Part shown: in pieces, positions 251 through 43,746 of the stretch
Layout of the letters: the number at the start of each line of letters is the position of its first letter
Position numbering within the stretch: position 1 is the first letter of the stretch
NCBI GenBank assembly: GCA_040219255.1
Contig: JAVJSW010000083.1
Location: 1 to 43,746 of the forward strand
Reading direction: 5' to 3'
DNA: 43,746 bases
DNA from: Sumerlaeia bacterium
Lineage (GTDB): Bacteria; Sumerlaeota; Sumerlaeia; SLMS01; JAHLLQ01
Translations under genes and position numbers: made by a program
Notes under the pieces: generated by a model
The model's database searches: none
The model's input: the letters and a program-made list of their open reading frames with translations, nothing else
Told to the model about the DNA's origin: nothing

Positions 251-2512
251 ATGTCTCGACTCAGGCCCCTAGTCTTTGCCAGCGCCCTCCTTGCGGCGTC
301 CCTCTGCTCCCAAGCCCCCGCCCAGGGCACCGCCAGCCTGACCCCTTCGGCGCCCGACCGGGGGACCCTGGCGACGGTGACCTTCGATGCCACCGGCGGC
401 CCCCTCGCCGCCGCCTCCCCCGTCGTGATGACGGTGGGGTTCAATGGCTTCCAGAACGCGTTCGATGTGACCCTGACAGGCACGGCGCCCAACTGGAGCG
501 GCACCTTCAACGTACCGAGCGACGCCACCGGCATCGACATCGTGTTCAAGAACGTCGCCGGGTCGATCTTCGACAACAACGGAGGCGCCGGCGTGGACTG
601 GCACTTCGTCGTGTCGGACGTCCTGGCCGAGGCGCTGGGCGTCACGAAGGTCCCGCCGTCGGAGGGTGGCGGCTACCTGTTCCGTCTCTGGGCGCCCGAT
701 GTGACCGAGGCCTCCGTGGTGGGCGATTTCAACAGTTTTGCGGGTGACGCGGACCTGATGGCGTTCGACAGCGCCAGCGGCGTCTGGTCCGTCCACGTTC
801 ACGACGCCGCCGTGGACGACGAGTACAAGTTCCTGCTGAAAGGCAGCGAGTTCCGCCGCGACCCGCGCGGGCGGATGGTGCGAGGCGCCTTCGACAATTC
901 CGTCATCGTCGATCCCACCACCTACACCTTCACCGAGAGCCGGCCCGGCACCGCCGCGGACTTCCGCGATTGGGTCGTTTACGAGATGCACATCGGGACC
1001 CTCGATCCGGCCGGCGGAATCGCCCCCGGCACCTTCGGCGACCTGATCCCGGCGCGGCTGGATTACATCGCCGACATGGGCTTCAACGCGGTGCTGGTGA
1101 TGCCGGTGAACGAATTTCCGGGCACCTATTCTGGCGGCTACAACCTGACCGAGCCCTTCGCCATCGAGCGCGATTACGGTTCGCCCGACGACTTCCGCGC
1201 CTTCGTCGATGCCTGCCACGCCCGCGGCATCGCCGTCATCGTCGATGTGGTGCATAACCATTACGGCCCGGGCGGCTTGGATCTCTACGACTTCCAGGAC
1301 CTGAACACCAACGCCACCCGCGACGAACCGGGCATCTATTTCTACGACGGGCCGCCGGCCGAGCTGGCCGACAGCGGATTCGGACCCCGCCCGGATTACT
1401 CCGAACCGCAGGTCCGCGACTTCATCACCGACAACATCGCCATGTTCCTCGACGAATACAACGTCGATGGTTTCCGCTGGGATTTCGTCAAGGCCATGCG
1501 CGGCCTGGTGGATGGCTCGTTCGCCGTGACCTCGGATTTGCCCGATGGCATTTCGCTGCTCCAGGACATCAACTCCACCCTGCTCAATTCCAACCCGGAC
1601 CTGCTGACGATGGCCGAGGACCTGGGCGGCGACGCCCGCCTGACGGACCCGGTTTCATCCGTCAGTGGCGACCCGAACGACGGCTATGGCTTCGACCGCC
1701 AATGGGAAGTCGATTTCCACGGCATCATGGCGACGCAGCTCGCCACGACCGATTCACTCATCAACATGGTCGATATCGAGGCCGCCATCGATGGCAGCCC
1801 AGCCCGCGTCCATTACCTGGAATCGCACGATGAAGTCTGGGAGCTGAACACCAAAGACCGCCTGCCGCCCCGCATCGACGGCGCGGACCCGGAAAGCCTG
1901 AAGGCGCGCAAGTTGTCCGGCCTCGGTGCCGGAATTCTGATGACCGCCGCTGGCATGCCGATGGTGTTCCAGGGCGGCGAGCTGCTCGATATCGGCGGGC
2001 CCGATGCCGACAACTCCTGGGGCGAGGATGAAGCCATCGACTTCTCCCGCCTCGCGGACCCGGACATCGCCGGATTCAATCAGCTCTACAAGGACCTCAT
2101 CGGGCTTCGGCGCAACCTCGGCGGAGCCACCGCCGGCCTGCTCGGCGACACCACCAACGTCTTCCACGTCAACAGCGGCGCCAAGGCCATCGCCTACTCC
2201 CGGTCCAACGGCGGCTCGGGCTTTGGCGATACGGTGGTGGTCCTGGCGAATTTCTCGACCGGGTCCTTTGCCGGAGGCTACGACATCGGCCTGCCCCAGG
2301 CCGGAACATGGTTCGAGGTCTTCAACAGCGACGACACCGCCTACGGCACCGACTTCGGCGGCGTCGGCGCGGGCCAGACCGTCGCCACGACGGCCAGCGC
2401 CCTCCATGGTTTCCCGCAGCGCGGCACCGTCGCGATCGGGCCCCGCAGCCTGATCGTGCTCTCGCAGACCACGCCCTTCAGTTCGGTCGCCGATTGGTCC
2501 ATCATGGAATAA
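251..2512 (+). CDS. Secreted GH13 alpha-amylase-family enzyme (GlgB/TreZ-like core) with an N-terminal starch-binding module and CBM48
   Basis: Signal peptide MSRLRPLVFASALLAASLCSQAPA. CBM-like ...VFKN...FDNNGG.DWH and CBM48 FRLWAP..VVGDFN. GH13 motifs YEMHIG, DVVHNH, GFRWD (nucleophile), AED (acid/base) and ESHDE. Start placed at ATG 251 rather than 113. Confidence 0.88.
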   Translation: MSRLRPLVFASALLAASLCSQAPAQGTASLTPSAPDRGTLATVTFDATGGPLAAASPVVMTVGFNGFQNAFDVTLTGTAPNWSGTFNVPSDATGIDIVFKNVAGSIFDNNGGAGVDWHFVVSDVLAEALGVTKVPPSEGGGYLFRLWAPDVTEASVVGDFNSFAGDADLMAFDSASGVWSVHVHDAAVDDEYKFLLKGSEFRRDPRGRMVRGAFDNSVIVDPTTYTFTESRPGTAADFRDWVVYEMHIGTLDPAGGIAPGTFGDLIPARLDYIADMGFNAVLVMPVNEFPGTYSGGYNLTEPFAIERDYGSPDDFRAFVDACHARGIAVIVDVVHNHYGPGGLDLYDFQDLNTNATRDEPGIYFYDGPPAELADSGFGPRPDYSEPQVRDFITDNIAMFLDEYNVDGFRWDFVKAMRGLVDGSFAVTSDLPDGISLLQDINSTLLNSNPDLLTMAEDLGGDARLTDPVSSVSGDPNDGYGFDRQWEVDFHGIMATQLATTDSLINMVDIEAAIDGSPARVHYLESHDEVWELNTKDRLPPRIDGADPESLKARKLSGLGAGILMTAAGMPMVFQGGELLDIGGPDADNSWGEDEAIDFSRLADPDIAGFNQLYKDLIGLRRNLGGATAGLLGDTTNVFHVNSGAKAIAYSRSNGGSGFGDTVVVLANFSTGSFAGGYDIGLPQAGTWFEVFNSDDTAYGTDFGGVGAGQTVATTASALHGFPQRGTVAIGPRSLIVLSQTTPFSSVADWSIME

Positions 2513-41251: not shown

Positions 41252-41287
41252 AAAAAAGACATTGGGCCCCGCTTGGGGCCCAATGTC
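41252..41287 (-). terminator. Intrinsic terminator downstream of the tRNA-Gly 3' end
   Basis: 13-bp perfect stem gacattgggcccc-gctt-ggggcccaatgtc, followed by T6 on the minus strand. Confidence 0.8.
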
Positions 41288-41323
41288 ATATCAGCGTAGA
41301 GTGCTGATTTTCCTGAACGAAAA

Positions 41324-41368
41324 TGGAGCGGGACACCGGGCTCGAACCGGCGACCTCCACCTTGGCAA
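41324..41368 (-). pseudogene. 3' half of tRNA-Gly(GCC), the attachment (att) site remnant
   Basis: The minus strand reads TTGCCAA GGTGG AGGTC GCCGG TTCGAGC CCGGT GTCCCGC T CCA: anticodon loop, T arm, acceptor 3' strand and CCA. The 5' half and D arm are absent. Confidence 0.9.
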
Positions 41369-41825: not shown

Positions 41826-43214
41826 ATGGACGCCCAAAAACAAATCGCAATACAGGTCTCCCCAAGCCAGATCGGCTCCGCTGATTCCTGGCTGCCCGCG
41901 CTCCATTGTGGGCTGTCGGGCCGGGTGTCTGGGATTTCTGATGCGGCCTGGAAGTTGGGTGAGCGGGCGAATGTTTTTGAGGGATTCCGGAATCCAGCAG
42001 ATCCGAAGTCCGAGTGGCGCGACGTCGAGCATGCAAAGTCACCGCTGTACCGACAGGGAAACGTCTCAGCGTTCAGGATCGAGGTAGACGGCGATCATTG
42101 GCAGCGTCCGATCGTCTCCGGCGACTACTGCGTTCACCCTGACGACGTGCTGGTCTCGCGAATCCCGCCTGTGCGGGCGAGCATCGTCACGACCCGCCAT
42201 CATCGCCATCCCATCGATCCACAACTCTTTTGCGTGCGTGGGCTCTCGCTTGCTGAGGGGGTGTGGGCCACCACCCTGCTGAACAGCGCCGAGTACGAGG
42301 CCTACCTGGTTGCCAGTTCCGCCAGCCAAGCCCTCCCACGCGTATCCCTTAGGGCATTGCGAAAAGCTCCAGTCCCACAGGTTCCCGAAGTGGCGACGCG
42401 TTGGGCATCCAGCGTCCTCCTCGTTCTGGGGGAAATGGTGGCGAATCAGGAGCGCCTGTTCCGTCTCCAGGAGGAAGTGGAGAATGCTGTCGACGGTCTT
42501 GCCGCTGGAGTGGAATCAAAGGCCGGGACGCGGCTCTGGAGCCGCGTCCCGGCGCCAGCCCTCACCGCAGATTCCTGGGTGCCTGCTCACGTCGAGAGCA
42601 ATGCCGCCCTAATGGCGTTGGCCGATGCGGGCTGGTGCCCTCTTGTTGATCTTGTCCGCCAATCGCCCACCATTCGCCTGAAGTCATGGCCGCAAGAGGC
42701 ACAGGGACTATCGCTGGCCGATGTCTCCAGATACTTCATTCCTGAAGAGGAACAGTCGGCCCCAGGGACGCGACCTGGTCGGTACTACGCCACTCCGGTG
42801 AAACCGGGAGACGTGCTGATGTCCACATTGGTCAGCTCTCCCAAGGTCGCCTACGCCGACATTTCAACCCCCGCATATATCCATGCGGTGGACCTTTGGG
42901 CTCGATTGCAATTCCGGGAAACCTCCGGCGCCTACGCGCTGATGCTTGGGTGCTCGTCTGTCCGCGATGAACTGCGTCACCTGGCTGTGGGGACAGCCCA
43001 GCAGTTCGCCACCGCTTCTTCCCTTCTGAGACTTTGCCTCCCGCCTGTTGATCGTGAAACCCGTGAACGTTGGCACCGACGCCTCGAAGACGTGCTGCTC
43101 GAACGCCGCCGTTTGGAGAAACAGTTCCGCGATTTGCGGCTCGAAGGCCGCCGCATGGTAGCCGAAGCCCTGAACATCCCATGGTCGGAGATGAAAGCGA
43201 GGCCGATGAAATGA
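41826..43214 (+). CDS. HsdS-like (restriction-modification specificity subunit-like) protein with two TRD-type repeats
   Basis: Internal duplication ADSWLPA / ADSWVPA, PDDVLVS / PGDVLMS and SQALPRVSLRALRKAPVP / GTAQQFATASSLLRLCLP, each followed by a coiled-coil helix. Confidence 0.7.
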   Translation: MDAQKQIAIQVSPSQIGSADSWLPALHCGLSGRVSGISDAAWKLGERANVFEGFRNPADPKSEWRDVEHAKSPLYRQGNVSAFRIEVDGDHWQRPIVSGDYCVHPDDVLVSRIPPVRASIVTTRHHRHPIDPQLFCVRGLSLAEGVWATTLLNSAEYEAYLVASSASQALPRVSLRALRKAPVPQVPEVATRWASSVLLVLGEMVANQERLFRLQEEVENAVDGLAAGVESKAGTRLWSRVPAPALTADSWVPAHVESNAALMALADAGWCPLVDLVRQSPTIRLKSWPQEAQGLSLADVSRYFIPEEEQSAPGTRPGRYYATPVKPGDVLMSTLVSSPKVAYADISTPAYIHAVDLWARLQFRETSGAYALMLGCSSVRDELRHLAVGTAQQFATASSLLRLCLPPVDRETRERWHRRLEDVLLERRRLEKQFRDLRLEGRRMVAEALNIPWSEMKARPMK

Positions 43215-43591
43215 ACCGAGAACTGATCTCCGAAGCCCGCGCCGCGTTGGCTGCGGGACCCACCGACCTCAGCAAGGTCCACGATCGTCTGAAAAGGGCT
43301 GGCAGCTCCTGGAGCGCCGCCCAGCACCACCTGTTCTTCCTGGCGCATCCGACATTTTCGGTCGTAGGCGATCAGGTCACCATCCAAAGCCAAGGGGGAA
43401 GCGGCGACGATCACCTGCTTTCCGAAATCATCAAGATCGTCGAGGCCTCCAGTCAGCCCCTGCCGCCCAGGGAAATCCGCAACCGGCTGCCGTCCGGCAT
43501 GACCACAACCGACGAGCAAGTCAAAGCGCTCGCCAAGAAATCACCCGCCCTCGACGTTTTTGGGCCGGGGCTTATTCGACCTGGGAGGTAA
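43211..43591 (+). CDS. Small hypothetical protein (126 aa), possibly two winged-helix-like modules
   Basis: ATGA overlap with the upstream stop. Two about 60-aa helix-helix-helix-beta units joined by QGGSG (LLSEIIKIVEASSQPLPPREIRNRL). Confidence 0.65.
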   Translation: MNRELISEARAALAAGPTDLSKVHDRLKRAGSSWSAAQHHLFFLAHPTFSVVGDQVTIQSQGGSGDDHLLSEIIKIVEASSQPLPPREIRNRLPSGMTTTDEQVKALAKKSPALDVFGPGLIRPGR

Positions 43592-43593
43592 GC

Positions 43594-43746
43594 ATGACCA
43601 CGAAGACACTCAATATTTCCGAAGCAACACTTAGCTCCTGGGCAAAGGGGCCGGGACAGACCGAATCTGACAAGTGCGAGAACGCCGTACGGGCCATTCG
43701 TAAGGCCATCAACGCGAGTGCTGATCTTGCCAAGCTCGACATCACC
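43594..43746 (+). CDS. N-terminus (51 aa, truncated by the window) of a probable CdnE-like CD-NTase / SMODS nucleotidyltransferase
   Basis: GGGAGG RBS, then MTTKTLNISEATLSSWAKGPGQTESDKCENAVRAIRKAINASADLAKLDIT. This matches the recalled clade-E CD-NTase start (E..L..W..P.S.TE..KC.NA...I..A) that precedes the QGSY motif. Catalytic motifs lie outside the window. Confidence 0.7.
   Translation, partial: MTTKTLNISEATLSSWAKGPGQTESDKCENAVRAIRKAINASADLAKLDIT

Follow-up and report, generated by a model that had tools for sequence, protein, structure and literature searches.

The window analysed in this study is the complete contig JAVJSW010000083.1 (C83; 43,746 nt) of a Sumerlaeia bacterium, whose draft genome (GCA_040219255.1) consists of 83 contigs with a completeness of 92% and a contamination of 3.3%. 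Three genes are closely arranged at its right end. They code for a 462-aa protein resembling HsdS specificity subunits (S462), for a 126-aa protein with a predicted tandem winged helix (P126) and for the N-terminal part of a putative cGAS/DncV-like nucleotidyltransferase (CD-NTase), CdnE. The remainder of cdnE resides at the beginning of contig C29 of the same genome, where it is followed by genes for the effector Cap15, for a 207-aa protein (P207) and for the components of a long defence operon starting with a methyltransferase (MTase) gene (Table 1). Very probably, the locus contains an ordinary type I cassette of the cyclic oligonucleotide-based antiphage signalling system (CBASS) which, together with P207, was inserted into a long-form operon similar to the methylation-associated defence system (MADS-like) on a tRNA-Gly island.

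Table 1. Features of the locus. Positions without a contig name refer to the window (C83). ORF, open reading frame; TPR, tetratricopeptide repeat.
Feature	Position	Strand	Basis
Terminator-like hairpin (13-bp stem, T-run) directly past the 3' end of the tRNA fragment	41258-41287	-	pattern scan
att-type direct repeat, 3' part of tRNA-Gly(GCC)	41319-41368	-	100% identity over 50 nt
S462, divergent HsdS-like protein	41826-43214	+	profile hits, fold, synteny
P126, tandem winged-helix protein, start codon overlapping the S462 stop (ATGA)	43211-43591	+	model, fold hits, homology
Ribosome-binding site GGGAGG, within the 3' end of P126 and 5 nt before the start codon of cdnE	43583-43588	+	read from the sequence
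cdnE, 5' part of 51 codons, left border of the cassette	43594-43746, continues C29:12-770	+	PDLC00801, join, homologues
Cap15	C29 772-1431	same strand	PF18153 and PADLOC 2TM effector profile
P207	C29 1435-2058	same strand	no family match
HsdM-type MTase	C29 2089-4131	same strand	PADLOC MTase_I, E 2e-256
Canonical HsdS	C29 4135-5685	same strand	PADLOC Specificity_I, E 1e-104
YhcG/DUF1016 PD-(D/E)xK nuclease	C29 5682-6923	same strand	Pfam and PADLOC PDC-S02, E 1.6e-123
Two ORFs, 432 aa and 443 aa	C29 6874-9293	same strand	no family
1,450-aa ORF, giant P-loop ATPase	C29 9199-13551	same strand	Atlas record starts at residue 30
272-aa protein	C29 13548-14366	same strand	no family
NurA-like protein, 388 aa	C29 14359-15525	same strand	Atlas feature score 0.97, TM 0.75/0.83
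HerA	C29 15544-17232	same strand	profile hits
205-aa protein	C29 17183-17800	same strand	no family
Ser/Thr kinase, sub-threshold TPR matches	C29 17800-19224	same strand	profile hits

A first-pass annotation, which was made from the letters of the window alone, had described the three terminal genes as coupled. Indeed, the ATG of P126 (43211-43213) overlaps the TGA of S462 (43212-43214), and P126, which ends with TAA at 43589-43591, is separated from the cdnE start codon at 43594 by two nucleotides only (43592-43593), preceded by the ribosome-binding site. It was also correctly stated that the third ORF is missing from the standard ORF list; it appears only if open-ended ORFs are allowed. The 51-aa stub encoded by this ORF matched positions 3-46 of the PADLOC cyclase profile PDLC00801 (295 positions, E 1.6e-11), and the protein with which C29 starts matched positions 45-295 of the same profile (E 3.6e-107 to 3.4e-108). 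The last 11 bases of C83 are identical to the first 11 bases of C29 and lie in frame with them, C29 being the sole match of this 11-mer among the 166 contig ends. Three full-length homologues of 302 aa (79-91% identical) can be aligned to both cyclase pieces across the join without any break. Thus, we concluded that the pieces belong to a single CD-NTase gene of 303 codons.

The cyclase frame on C29 opens with DITVFPQGSY...SDVDV, followed further on by ..IDADVV.., in line with the prediction that a QGSY..SD.D motif should be found downstream of the window. GS...[D/E]xD plus a downstream Asp, which we take to be the nucleotidyltransferase catalytic motif of CD-NTases, is hence present in CdnE. 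All five matches of the cyclase in the PDB were CdnE enzymes or homologues thereof (7x4f, 7x4a, 7x4c, 6e0m and 6e0k; E 5e-60 to 1e-26). The best solved relative is 7x4f, designated 'cyclic dipyrimidine nucleotide synthase' (E 5e-60). The protein had already been called CdnE-like, which agrees with these structures; its affiliation with clade E, based on best hits and not on a tree, is putative. The cyclase family comprises more than 2,500 members of approximately 300 aa, and in precomputed annotation close full-length homologues carry PF26305 and PF18144.

An effector gene had been expected downstream of the cyclase, and cap15 directly adjoins cdnE. Residues 72-194 of the 219-aa product matched PF18153 (Cap15_CD_rec) with 75.3 bits, far above the cut-off of 31.2. 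The protein also matched the PADLOC 2TM effector profile (E 1.7e-76) and possesses hydrophobic helices at its N-terminus. Apart from the matches of these two proteins, the three window proteins and the 14 ORFs of C29 that were scanned gave no CBASS-type PADLOC match, Cap2/Cap3 and HORMA/TRIP13 included; the assembled part of the island ends with C29. By gene content, cdnE and cap15 would therefore make up a complete type I CBASS module. Together with P207 the cassette comprises 2,200 nt and ends at C29:2058. In another part of the genome (C62, positions 1393-1959, minus strand), a relic of a second CD-NTase gene was detected. The match of this 187-aa ORF to a different PADLOC cyclase profile (E 2.9e-47) was confined to the C-terminal half of the profile, positions 179-353 of 375, and the neighbours of the ORF gave no PADLOC hit.

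P207 revealed no Pfam, PADLOC or NCBIfam-type match. It belongs to a family with 46 further homologues of about 207 aa, none of which has been named. The residues D58, D60-D61, Y73-F74-G75, R145-N146 and H150 are invariant in this family. Homologues were found in four IMG/VR viral contigs with no CBASS gene nearby, in one case close to a phage head-tail attachment gene, and more distant ones reside on plasmids of Priestia and Pseudomonas, again without CBASS genes.

The first-pass annotation had asked whether homologues of S462 and P126 repeatedly neighbour CD-NTases. Related loci were collected by a one-genome-per-species scan with the S462 alignment and from metagenomes, and were searched for the genes of the cassette by tblastn (E<=1e-3). 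The scan yielded six loci, belonging to three metagenome-assembled genomes of Desulfobacterota, to Chthoniobacter flavus and to two Planctomycetota. In each of the six, S462, P126 and the MTase gene are adjacent, the MTase homologues being 62-79% identical, and the same order was found in all three informative metagenome loci; a fourth is cut inside S462. Two of the metagenome loci are copies of the L008 lineage (L008, L013 and L015 count as one), and L014 adds a further lineage; the nine informative loci correspond to approximately seven lineages, distributed over the three phyla Desulfobacterota, Verrucomicrobiota and Planctomycetota. None of the ten related loci disclosed a match to cdnE, Cap15 or P207. 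The spacing between P126 and the MTase gene ranges from an overlap to about 120 nt in the relatives, as opposed to 2,232 nt in the locus studied here. Where the contigs of the genome loci extend further, they also carry the remainder of the operon; the operon is colinear through the kinase gene in all three extended loci, and HerA homologues (70-86% identical) lie downstream in four of four genomes. The block cdnE-cap15-P207 thus appears to have been inserted in this lineage alone, although close relatives whose loci are unassembled may possess it too. Of the two arrangements considered in the first-pass annotation, it is the CBASS inserted into a restriction-modification (R-M)/MADS-like operon that agrees with these findings.

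The MTase gene was also matched in 209 out of 5,426 complete genomes of Escherichia coli. In two loci that were opened, the operon is colinear from the MTase to the kinase gene, and a gene for a 128-aa homologue of P126 (hhalign probability 96.3%, E 1.5e-9) is located directly before the MTase gene. At the place of S462, directly before the P126-like gene, both loci contain McrB and McrC (L035 14235-18029, L036 2235-6029). Hence, P126 is the conserved leader gene of the operon, and S462 an optional first gene of its long form. Just upstream of McrB/McrC, the two E. coli loci harbour a gene for a phosphorothioated-DNA-binding restriction endonuclease.

Another variable site was observed downstream of HsdS, before the conserved 432-aa ORF. 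This slot contains the YhcG gene here and a 71% identical YhcG gene in the lineage of L008. In L007 it is occupied by a second HsdS gene, whereas Chthoniobacter has a 277-aa ORF there (L010 15339-16172) and L012 nothing. The Chthoniobacter ORF, which gave no Pfam match at E<=0.01, contains motifs similar by eye to those of a trypsin-like serine protease (..TAAHV.., ..GMSGGG..).

Concerning the other genes of the operon, the first-pass annotation had recommended looking for R-M partners downstream. An N6-adenine MTase is present, whereas for HsdR no REase_I match was obtained in the locus. The giant ATPase had no match on plasmids or in the PDB; in the Atlas its lone lead was BrxC_BrxD, on 20% of one cluster. 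In the 353 nt behind the kinase gene (C29 19225-19577), a unit of about 150 nt occurs twice in tandem and reaches up to the contig end, a repeat at which the assembly probably stopped.

For S462, twelve homologues besides itself were found in a search of 5.8 billion proteins, and a profile built from ten members of the family recovered 190 cluster representatives (88 at E<=1e-30) from a library of 1.84 billion; thus, we regard the genes as real. No Pfam family was matched at E<=1 and no NCBIfam family, the gathering score of PF01420 not being reached, and two deeper members of the family likewise lack Pfam Methylase_S. PADLOC type I specificity profiles gave weak matches (best Specificity_I, E 3.4e-4). 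The tail hits of the S462 profile were ordinary S subunits; all eight that were scanned carry PF01420 above its cut-off (library-wide E 4.4e-8 to 5.6e-5). Against the S subunit 7vru_C of the PDB, an E value of 0.03 was obtained. The AlphaFold model, with a mean confidence (pLDDT) of 51, shows two beta/alpha halves similar to target recognition domains (TRDs), with a helix of about 40 residues behind each half. Eight of the 12 top rows of a Foldseek search against the PDB were S subunits, none of them at E<=0.001; these weak fold matches include HsdS of T. tengcongensis and the S subunits of EcoKI, PacII and BsaXI. A comparison of the S462 profile with the canonical HsdS of the operon by hhalign was not significant (probability 0.7%, E 0.086). 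Hence S462 is HsdS-like, as the first-pass annotation had proposed, and represents a divergent sister family of the Methylase_S proteins. In the compared loci, no conserved gene was found upstream of S462. Its coding region contains a near-perfect, GC-rich palindrome (42522-42553) with a 14-bp stem including 12 G-C pairs and a 4-nt loop.

The start codon of P126 is shared by seven homologues, in three of which it is the sole start after an in-frame stop. The model of P126 (pLDDT 84.7) consists of an HHHEE unit that occurs twice, and its fold matches, all at E > 0.001, are tandem winged-helix modules (Rpc5 tWHD2, RPC62, SelB and ESCRT-II), so that the earlier classification as a tandem winged helix-turn-helix (wHTH) protein holds. 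Judging from folds and position, our guess is that S462 and P126 may add DNA recognition or regulation to the methylation system.

The left boundary of the island is probably located upstream of S462. The direct repeat at 41319-41368 combines the 45 nt at the 3' end of tRNA-Gly(GCC) with 5 nt beyond, and its partner lies at C39:188882-188931. There the tRNA gene is whole (C39:188850-188926), and C39 ends 193 nt past it. Such a repeat, here followed by a terminator-like hairpin, is typically seen where an element has integrated into a tRNA gene. It represents an att-type boundary, with the island to the right of 41368. In the window itself no whole tRNA was detected by ARAGORN, nor by Rfam between 40500 and 43746; hence the former designation as a tRNA-integrated island is right in substance, though literally there is no tRNA gene in the window. 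The hairpin at 41258-41287 is likely the native terminator of tRNA-Gly and would mark the chromosomal side of the boundary. As the pattern scan returned four sites with 2.4 being expected, the pattern alone is weak. The foreign origin of the genes is indicated by their absence from relatives, as S462 was found in none of 60 relatives, and neither P207 nor cdnE in any of 74 further genomes within the phylum. In the whole-genome tRNA scan, several tRNA-Gly(gcc) calls were unusually long (95-96 nt), and ARAGORN called a tRNA with the anticodon tta ('tRNA-Stop') at C68 283041-283118.

The host operon is probably the distal operon of the tRNA-Gly-flanked island and would serve methylation-associated defence, with the order S462, P126, MTase, HsdS, 432-aa protein, 443-aa protein, ATPase, 272-aa protein, NurA-like protein, HerA, 205-aa protein and kinase. 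The 2.2-kb cassette (cdnE, cap15 and P207) would have entered the operon in the same orientation, at the point where P126 and the MTase gene are normally separated by a short gap. The gaps at the successive junctions of P126, cdnE, cap15, P207 and the MTase gene amount to 2, 1, 3 and 30 nt. A pattern scan disclosed no plus-strand terminator, and scans for sigma-70 promoters found nothing. The short gaps and the lack of a plus-strand terminator suggest read-through transcription, by which the cassette would be co-transcribed with the host operon. As in known CBASS, CdnE would produce a cyclic, probably pyrimidine-containing nucleotide upon infection. Binding of this nucleotide by the beta-barrel receptor of Cap15 may then lead to disruption of the membrane and to abortive infection. 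By analogy with MADS, as far as described in the portions of the literature available to us (bioRxiv 10.1101/2023.03.30.534895; PMC13662399), the MTase and HsdS may mark self DNA by N6-adenine methylation, and the ATPase, NurA-HerA and kinase components may attack unmarked DNA. S462 and P126 would serve this methylation system and not the cyclase.

Several points weigh against this interpretation. The cyclase gene is split across two contigs, and its presumed join relies on 11 nt and homology; no spanning read or contig was seen. The 255-aa cyclase part has no Pfam family, and a search of the genome for PF18144 gave no match. Within 100-nt windows at the cassette borders, neither direct nor inverted repeats of at least 7 nt were detected, and the GC content of the cassette (0.55-0.57) falls within the range of the host operon genes (0.49-0.64). 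The close relatives (S462 77-88%; cdnE 77-91%) are represented solely by short contigs on which the gene order is unreadable. Moreover, both the co-transcription and the independent action of the cassette are points that we infer. In view of the fragmented and slightly contaminated draft genome, of the cyclase gene broken at a contig end and of the best sequencing run, which shares just 13% of the sampled words, one might even suspect that the nesting was created by a chimeric or mis-joined metagenome assembly. We consider this hardly credible, since both borders of the cassette sit inside contigs, P126-cdnE within C83 and P207-MTase within C29, and since the P126-cdnE junction is spanned by a metagenome contig from a different sample (run X1; 151 nt, 6 differences), 31 nt of which fall on the side of cdnE. 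Furthermore, the cyclase halves yield one 303-aa protein colinear with its 302-aa homologues, and the terminal 11-mer is shared by C29 alone. Three lake-water runs gave no cover at 43596-43746, which carries no weight either way. In run X4, one contig departs from the C83 sequence for 181 nt starting at 43588, which is only a hint of a variable slot after P126.

The first-pass annotation had also considered that S462, by DNA recognition, and the wHTH protein P126 act as a dedicated sensor and regulator of the CD-NTase, which would constitute an undescribed type of CBASS. The translational coupling of S462, P126 and cdnE fits this idea, as does the predicted nucleic-acid-binding fold of P126, by which this protein could, trivially, regulate the whole operon. 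The homologues of S462 and P126, however, always precede the MTase gene and never a cyclase gene (9/9 informative loci). They do not recur beside CD-NTases, an outcome that the first-pass annotation itself had named as refuting its proposal and that speaks directly against a sensor/regulator pair. Furthermore, a P126-like gene precedes the MTase gene in the two E. coli loci, S462 and P126 are accompanied by the complete downstream system in different phyla, and the families differ in size (more than 2,500 cyclases versus 190 cluster representatives of S462), making such a pair very improbable. For a functional hybrid of R-M and CBASS, as suggested by the same annotation, no evidence was found. 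A related possibility is a functionally integrated two-layer system, in which CBASS would be a co-regulated backup that fires when a phage blocks or escapes the methylation layer, with Cap15 aborting the infection. The tight packing on the same strand without a plus-strand terminator makes co-expression likely, and other internal slots carry cargo as well (YhcG, a second HsdS, the 277-aa ORF and, in E. coli, McrBC). Yet the arrangement was encountered in one lineage and in none of the ten related loci, CdnE and Cap15 form a known self-sufficient module, no sequence feature ties the cyclase to the other proteins, and defence genes co-locate in islands by default. We therefore regard functional integration as unlikely. 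A somewhat wider but still rather unlikely proposition is that gaps of MADS-like operons are dedicated cargo slots for unrelated immune modules, the nested CBASS, perhaps with P207, being a co-transcribed tier of abortive infection. There are three apparent slots, namely before P126, between P126 and the MTase gene, and between HsdS and the next gene. If this were true, the operon would be a wired two-tier immune system, whose CBASS fires upon escape from or inhibition of the methylation layer, and not a chance co-location.

Insertion of an ordinary CBASS cassette remains the interpretation that we prefer. As the proposed sensor-regulated type of CBASS is not present at this locus, a false lead is stopped. 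Instead, nature would provide here a clear case of a full CBASS module lying, in reading direction, inside another, putative multi-enzyme defence operon. At three positions of this operon, the cargo differs between lineages. The operon with and without the cassette would be a concrete construct to find out whether nested modules are merely co-expressed or functionally layered.

A type I CBASS of the known kind consists, as here, of a CD-NTase (303 aa in this case) with the GS...DxD...D motif and an adjacent effector with a Cap15 receptor domain. In this locus it is embedded in another defence operon and not free-standing, and it is followed by an extra 207-aa gene whose relatives reside in phage contigs and on plasmids without CBASS. 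Compared with HsdS of type I R-M systems, S462 is alike in the TRD-helix-TRD-helix topology, as far as a model with a pLDDT of 51 can be read, but differs in that it does not adjoin hsdM, P126 always lying between S462 and the MTase gene, and in that its locus gave no REase_I match, i.e., is without HsdR.

The host operon shares the MTase, the specificity subunit, the Ser/Thr kinase and the HerA-type ATPase with its upstream nuclease partner with the MADS of Pseudomonas aeruginosa SMC4386 (mad1-mad8). PADLOC profiles for mad2 (E 8.5e-15), mad5 (E 2.2e-16), mad6 (E 5.3e-50) and mad8 (E 4.2e-26) matched proteins of C29, but they were outscored by generic HerA, kinase and type I profiles. None of the scanned proteins matched mad1, mad3, mad4 or mad7 in PADLOC, and for mad7 neither the NurA-like 388-aa protein nor the 205-aa protein gave a match at E<=1. 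According to the accessible part of a preprint, MAD6, MAD7 and MAD8 are mandatory and MAD3-MAD4 accessory in the authors' MacSyFinder model (bioRxiv 10.1101/2023.03.30.534895). As the mandatory mad7 was not matched, we rejected the operon as a MADS in the strict sense. The OLD-like ATPase-nuclease module MAD3-MAD4, which an article available in part describes for MADS (PMC13662399), was not found here; a giant 1,450-aa ATPase ORF is present instead. MANTIS/Gao_RL and bacteriophage exclusion (BREX)-related capture systems, judged by the portions of the descriptions at hand, as well as DndFGH were rejected too, since they are built from other sets of components and PADLOC gave no hit to them. 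The same part of the preprint mentions a 'MADS-like' system of eleven genes (madl1-madl11) in defence islands of P. aeruginosa (bioRxiv 10.1101/2023.03.30.534895). In its general make-up the operon studied here fits this system, likewise a multi-gene operon with an N6-MTase and without HsdR. The E. coli operon is colinear with ours (P126-like gene, MTase, S, 432-aa ORF, ATPase, 272-aa protein, NurA-like protein, HerA, 205-aa protein and kinase), and ours adds S462, the 443-aa ORF, the YhcG nuclease and the CBASS cassette. With its additional HsdS-like gene, the locus would extend the MADS-like systems by a long-form member. Our literature search, which had partial coverage, retrieved no description of a CBASS nested in a MADS-like operon and, in the portions of the sources available, no experimental test of MADS-like systems.

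Defence genes embedded in the operons of other systems are known, PrrC being located within the EcoprrI type I R-M locus. A survey of BREX, as far as its text was available, reports that auxiliary and backup effectors have been recruited as a general theme in BREX and systems related to it (PMC12839542). The locus described here likewise holds a second, unrelated module inside a methylation-based operon; in this case, however, the module is a full CBASS with synthase and effector, and not a single nuclease.

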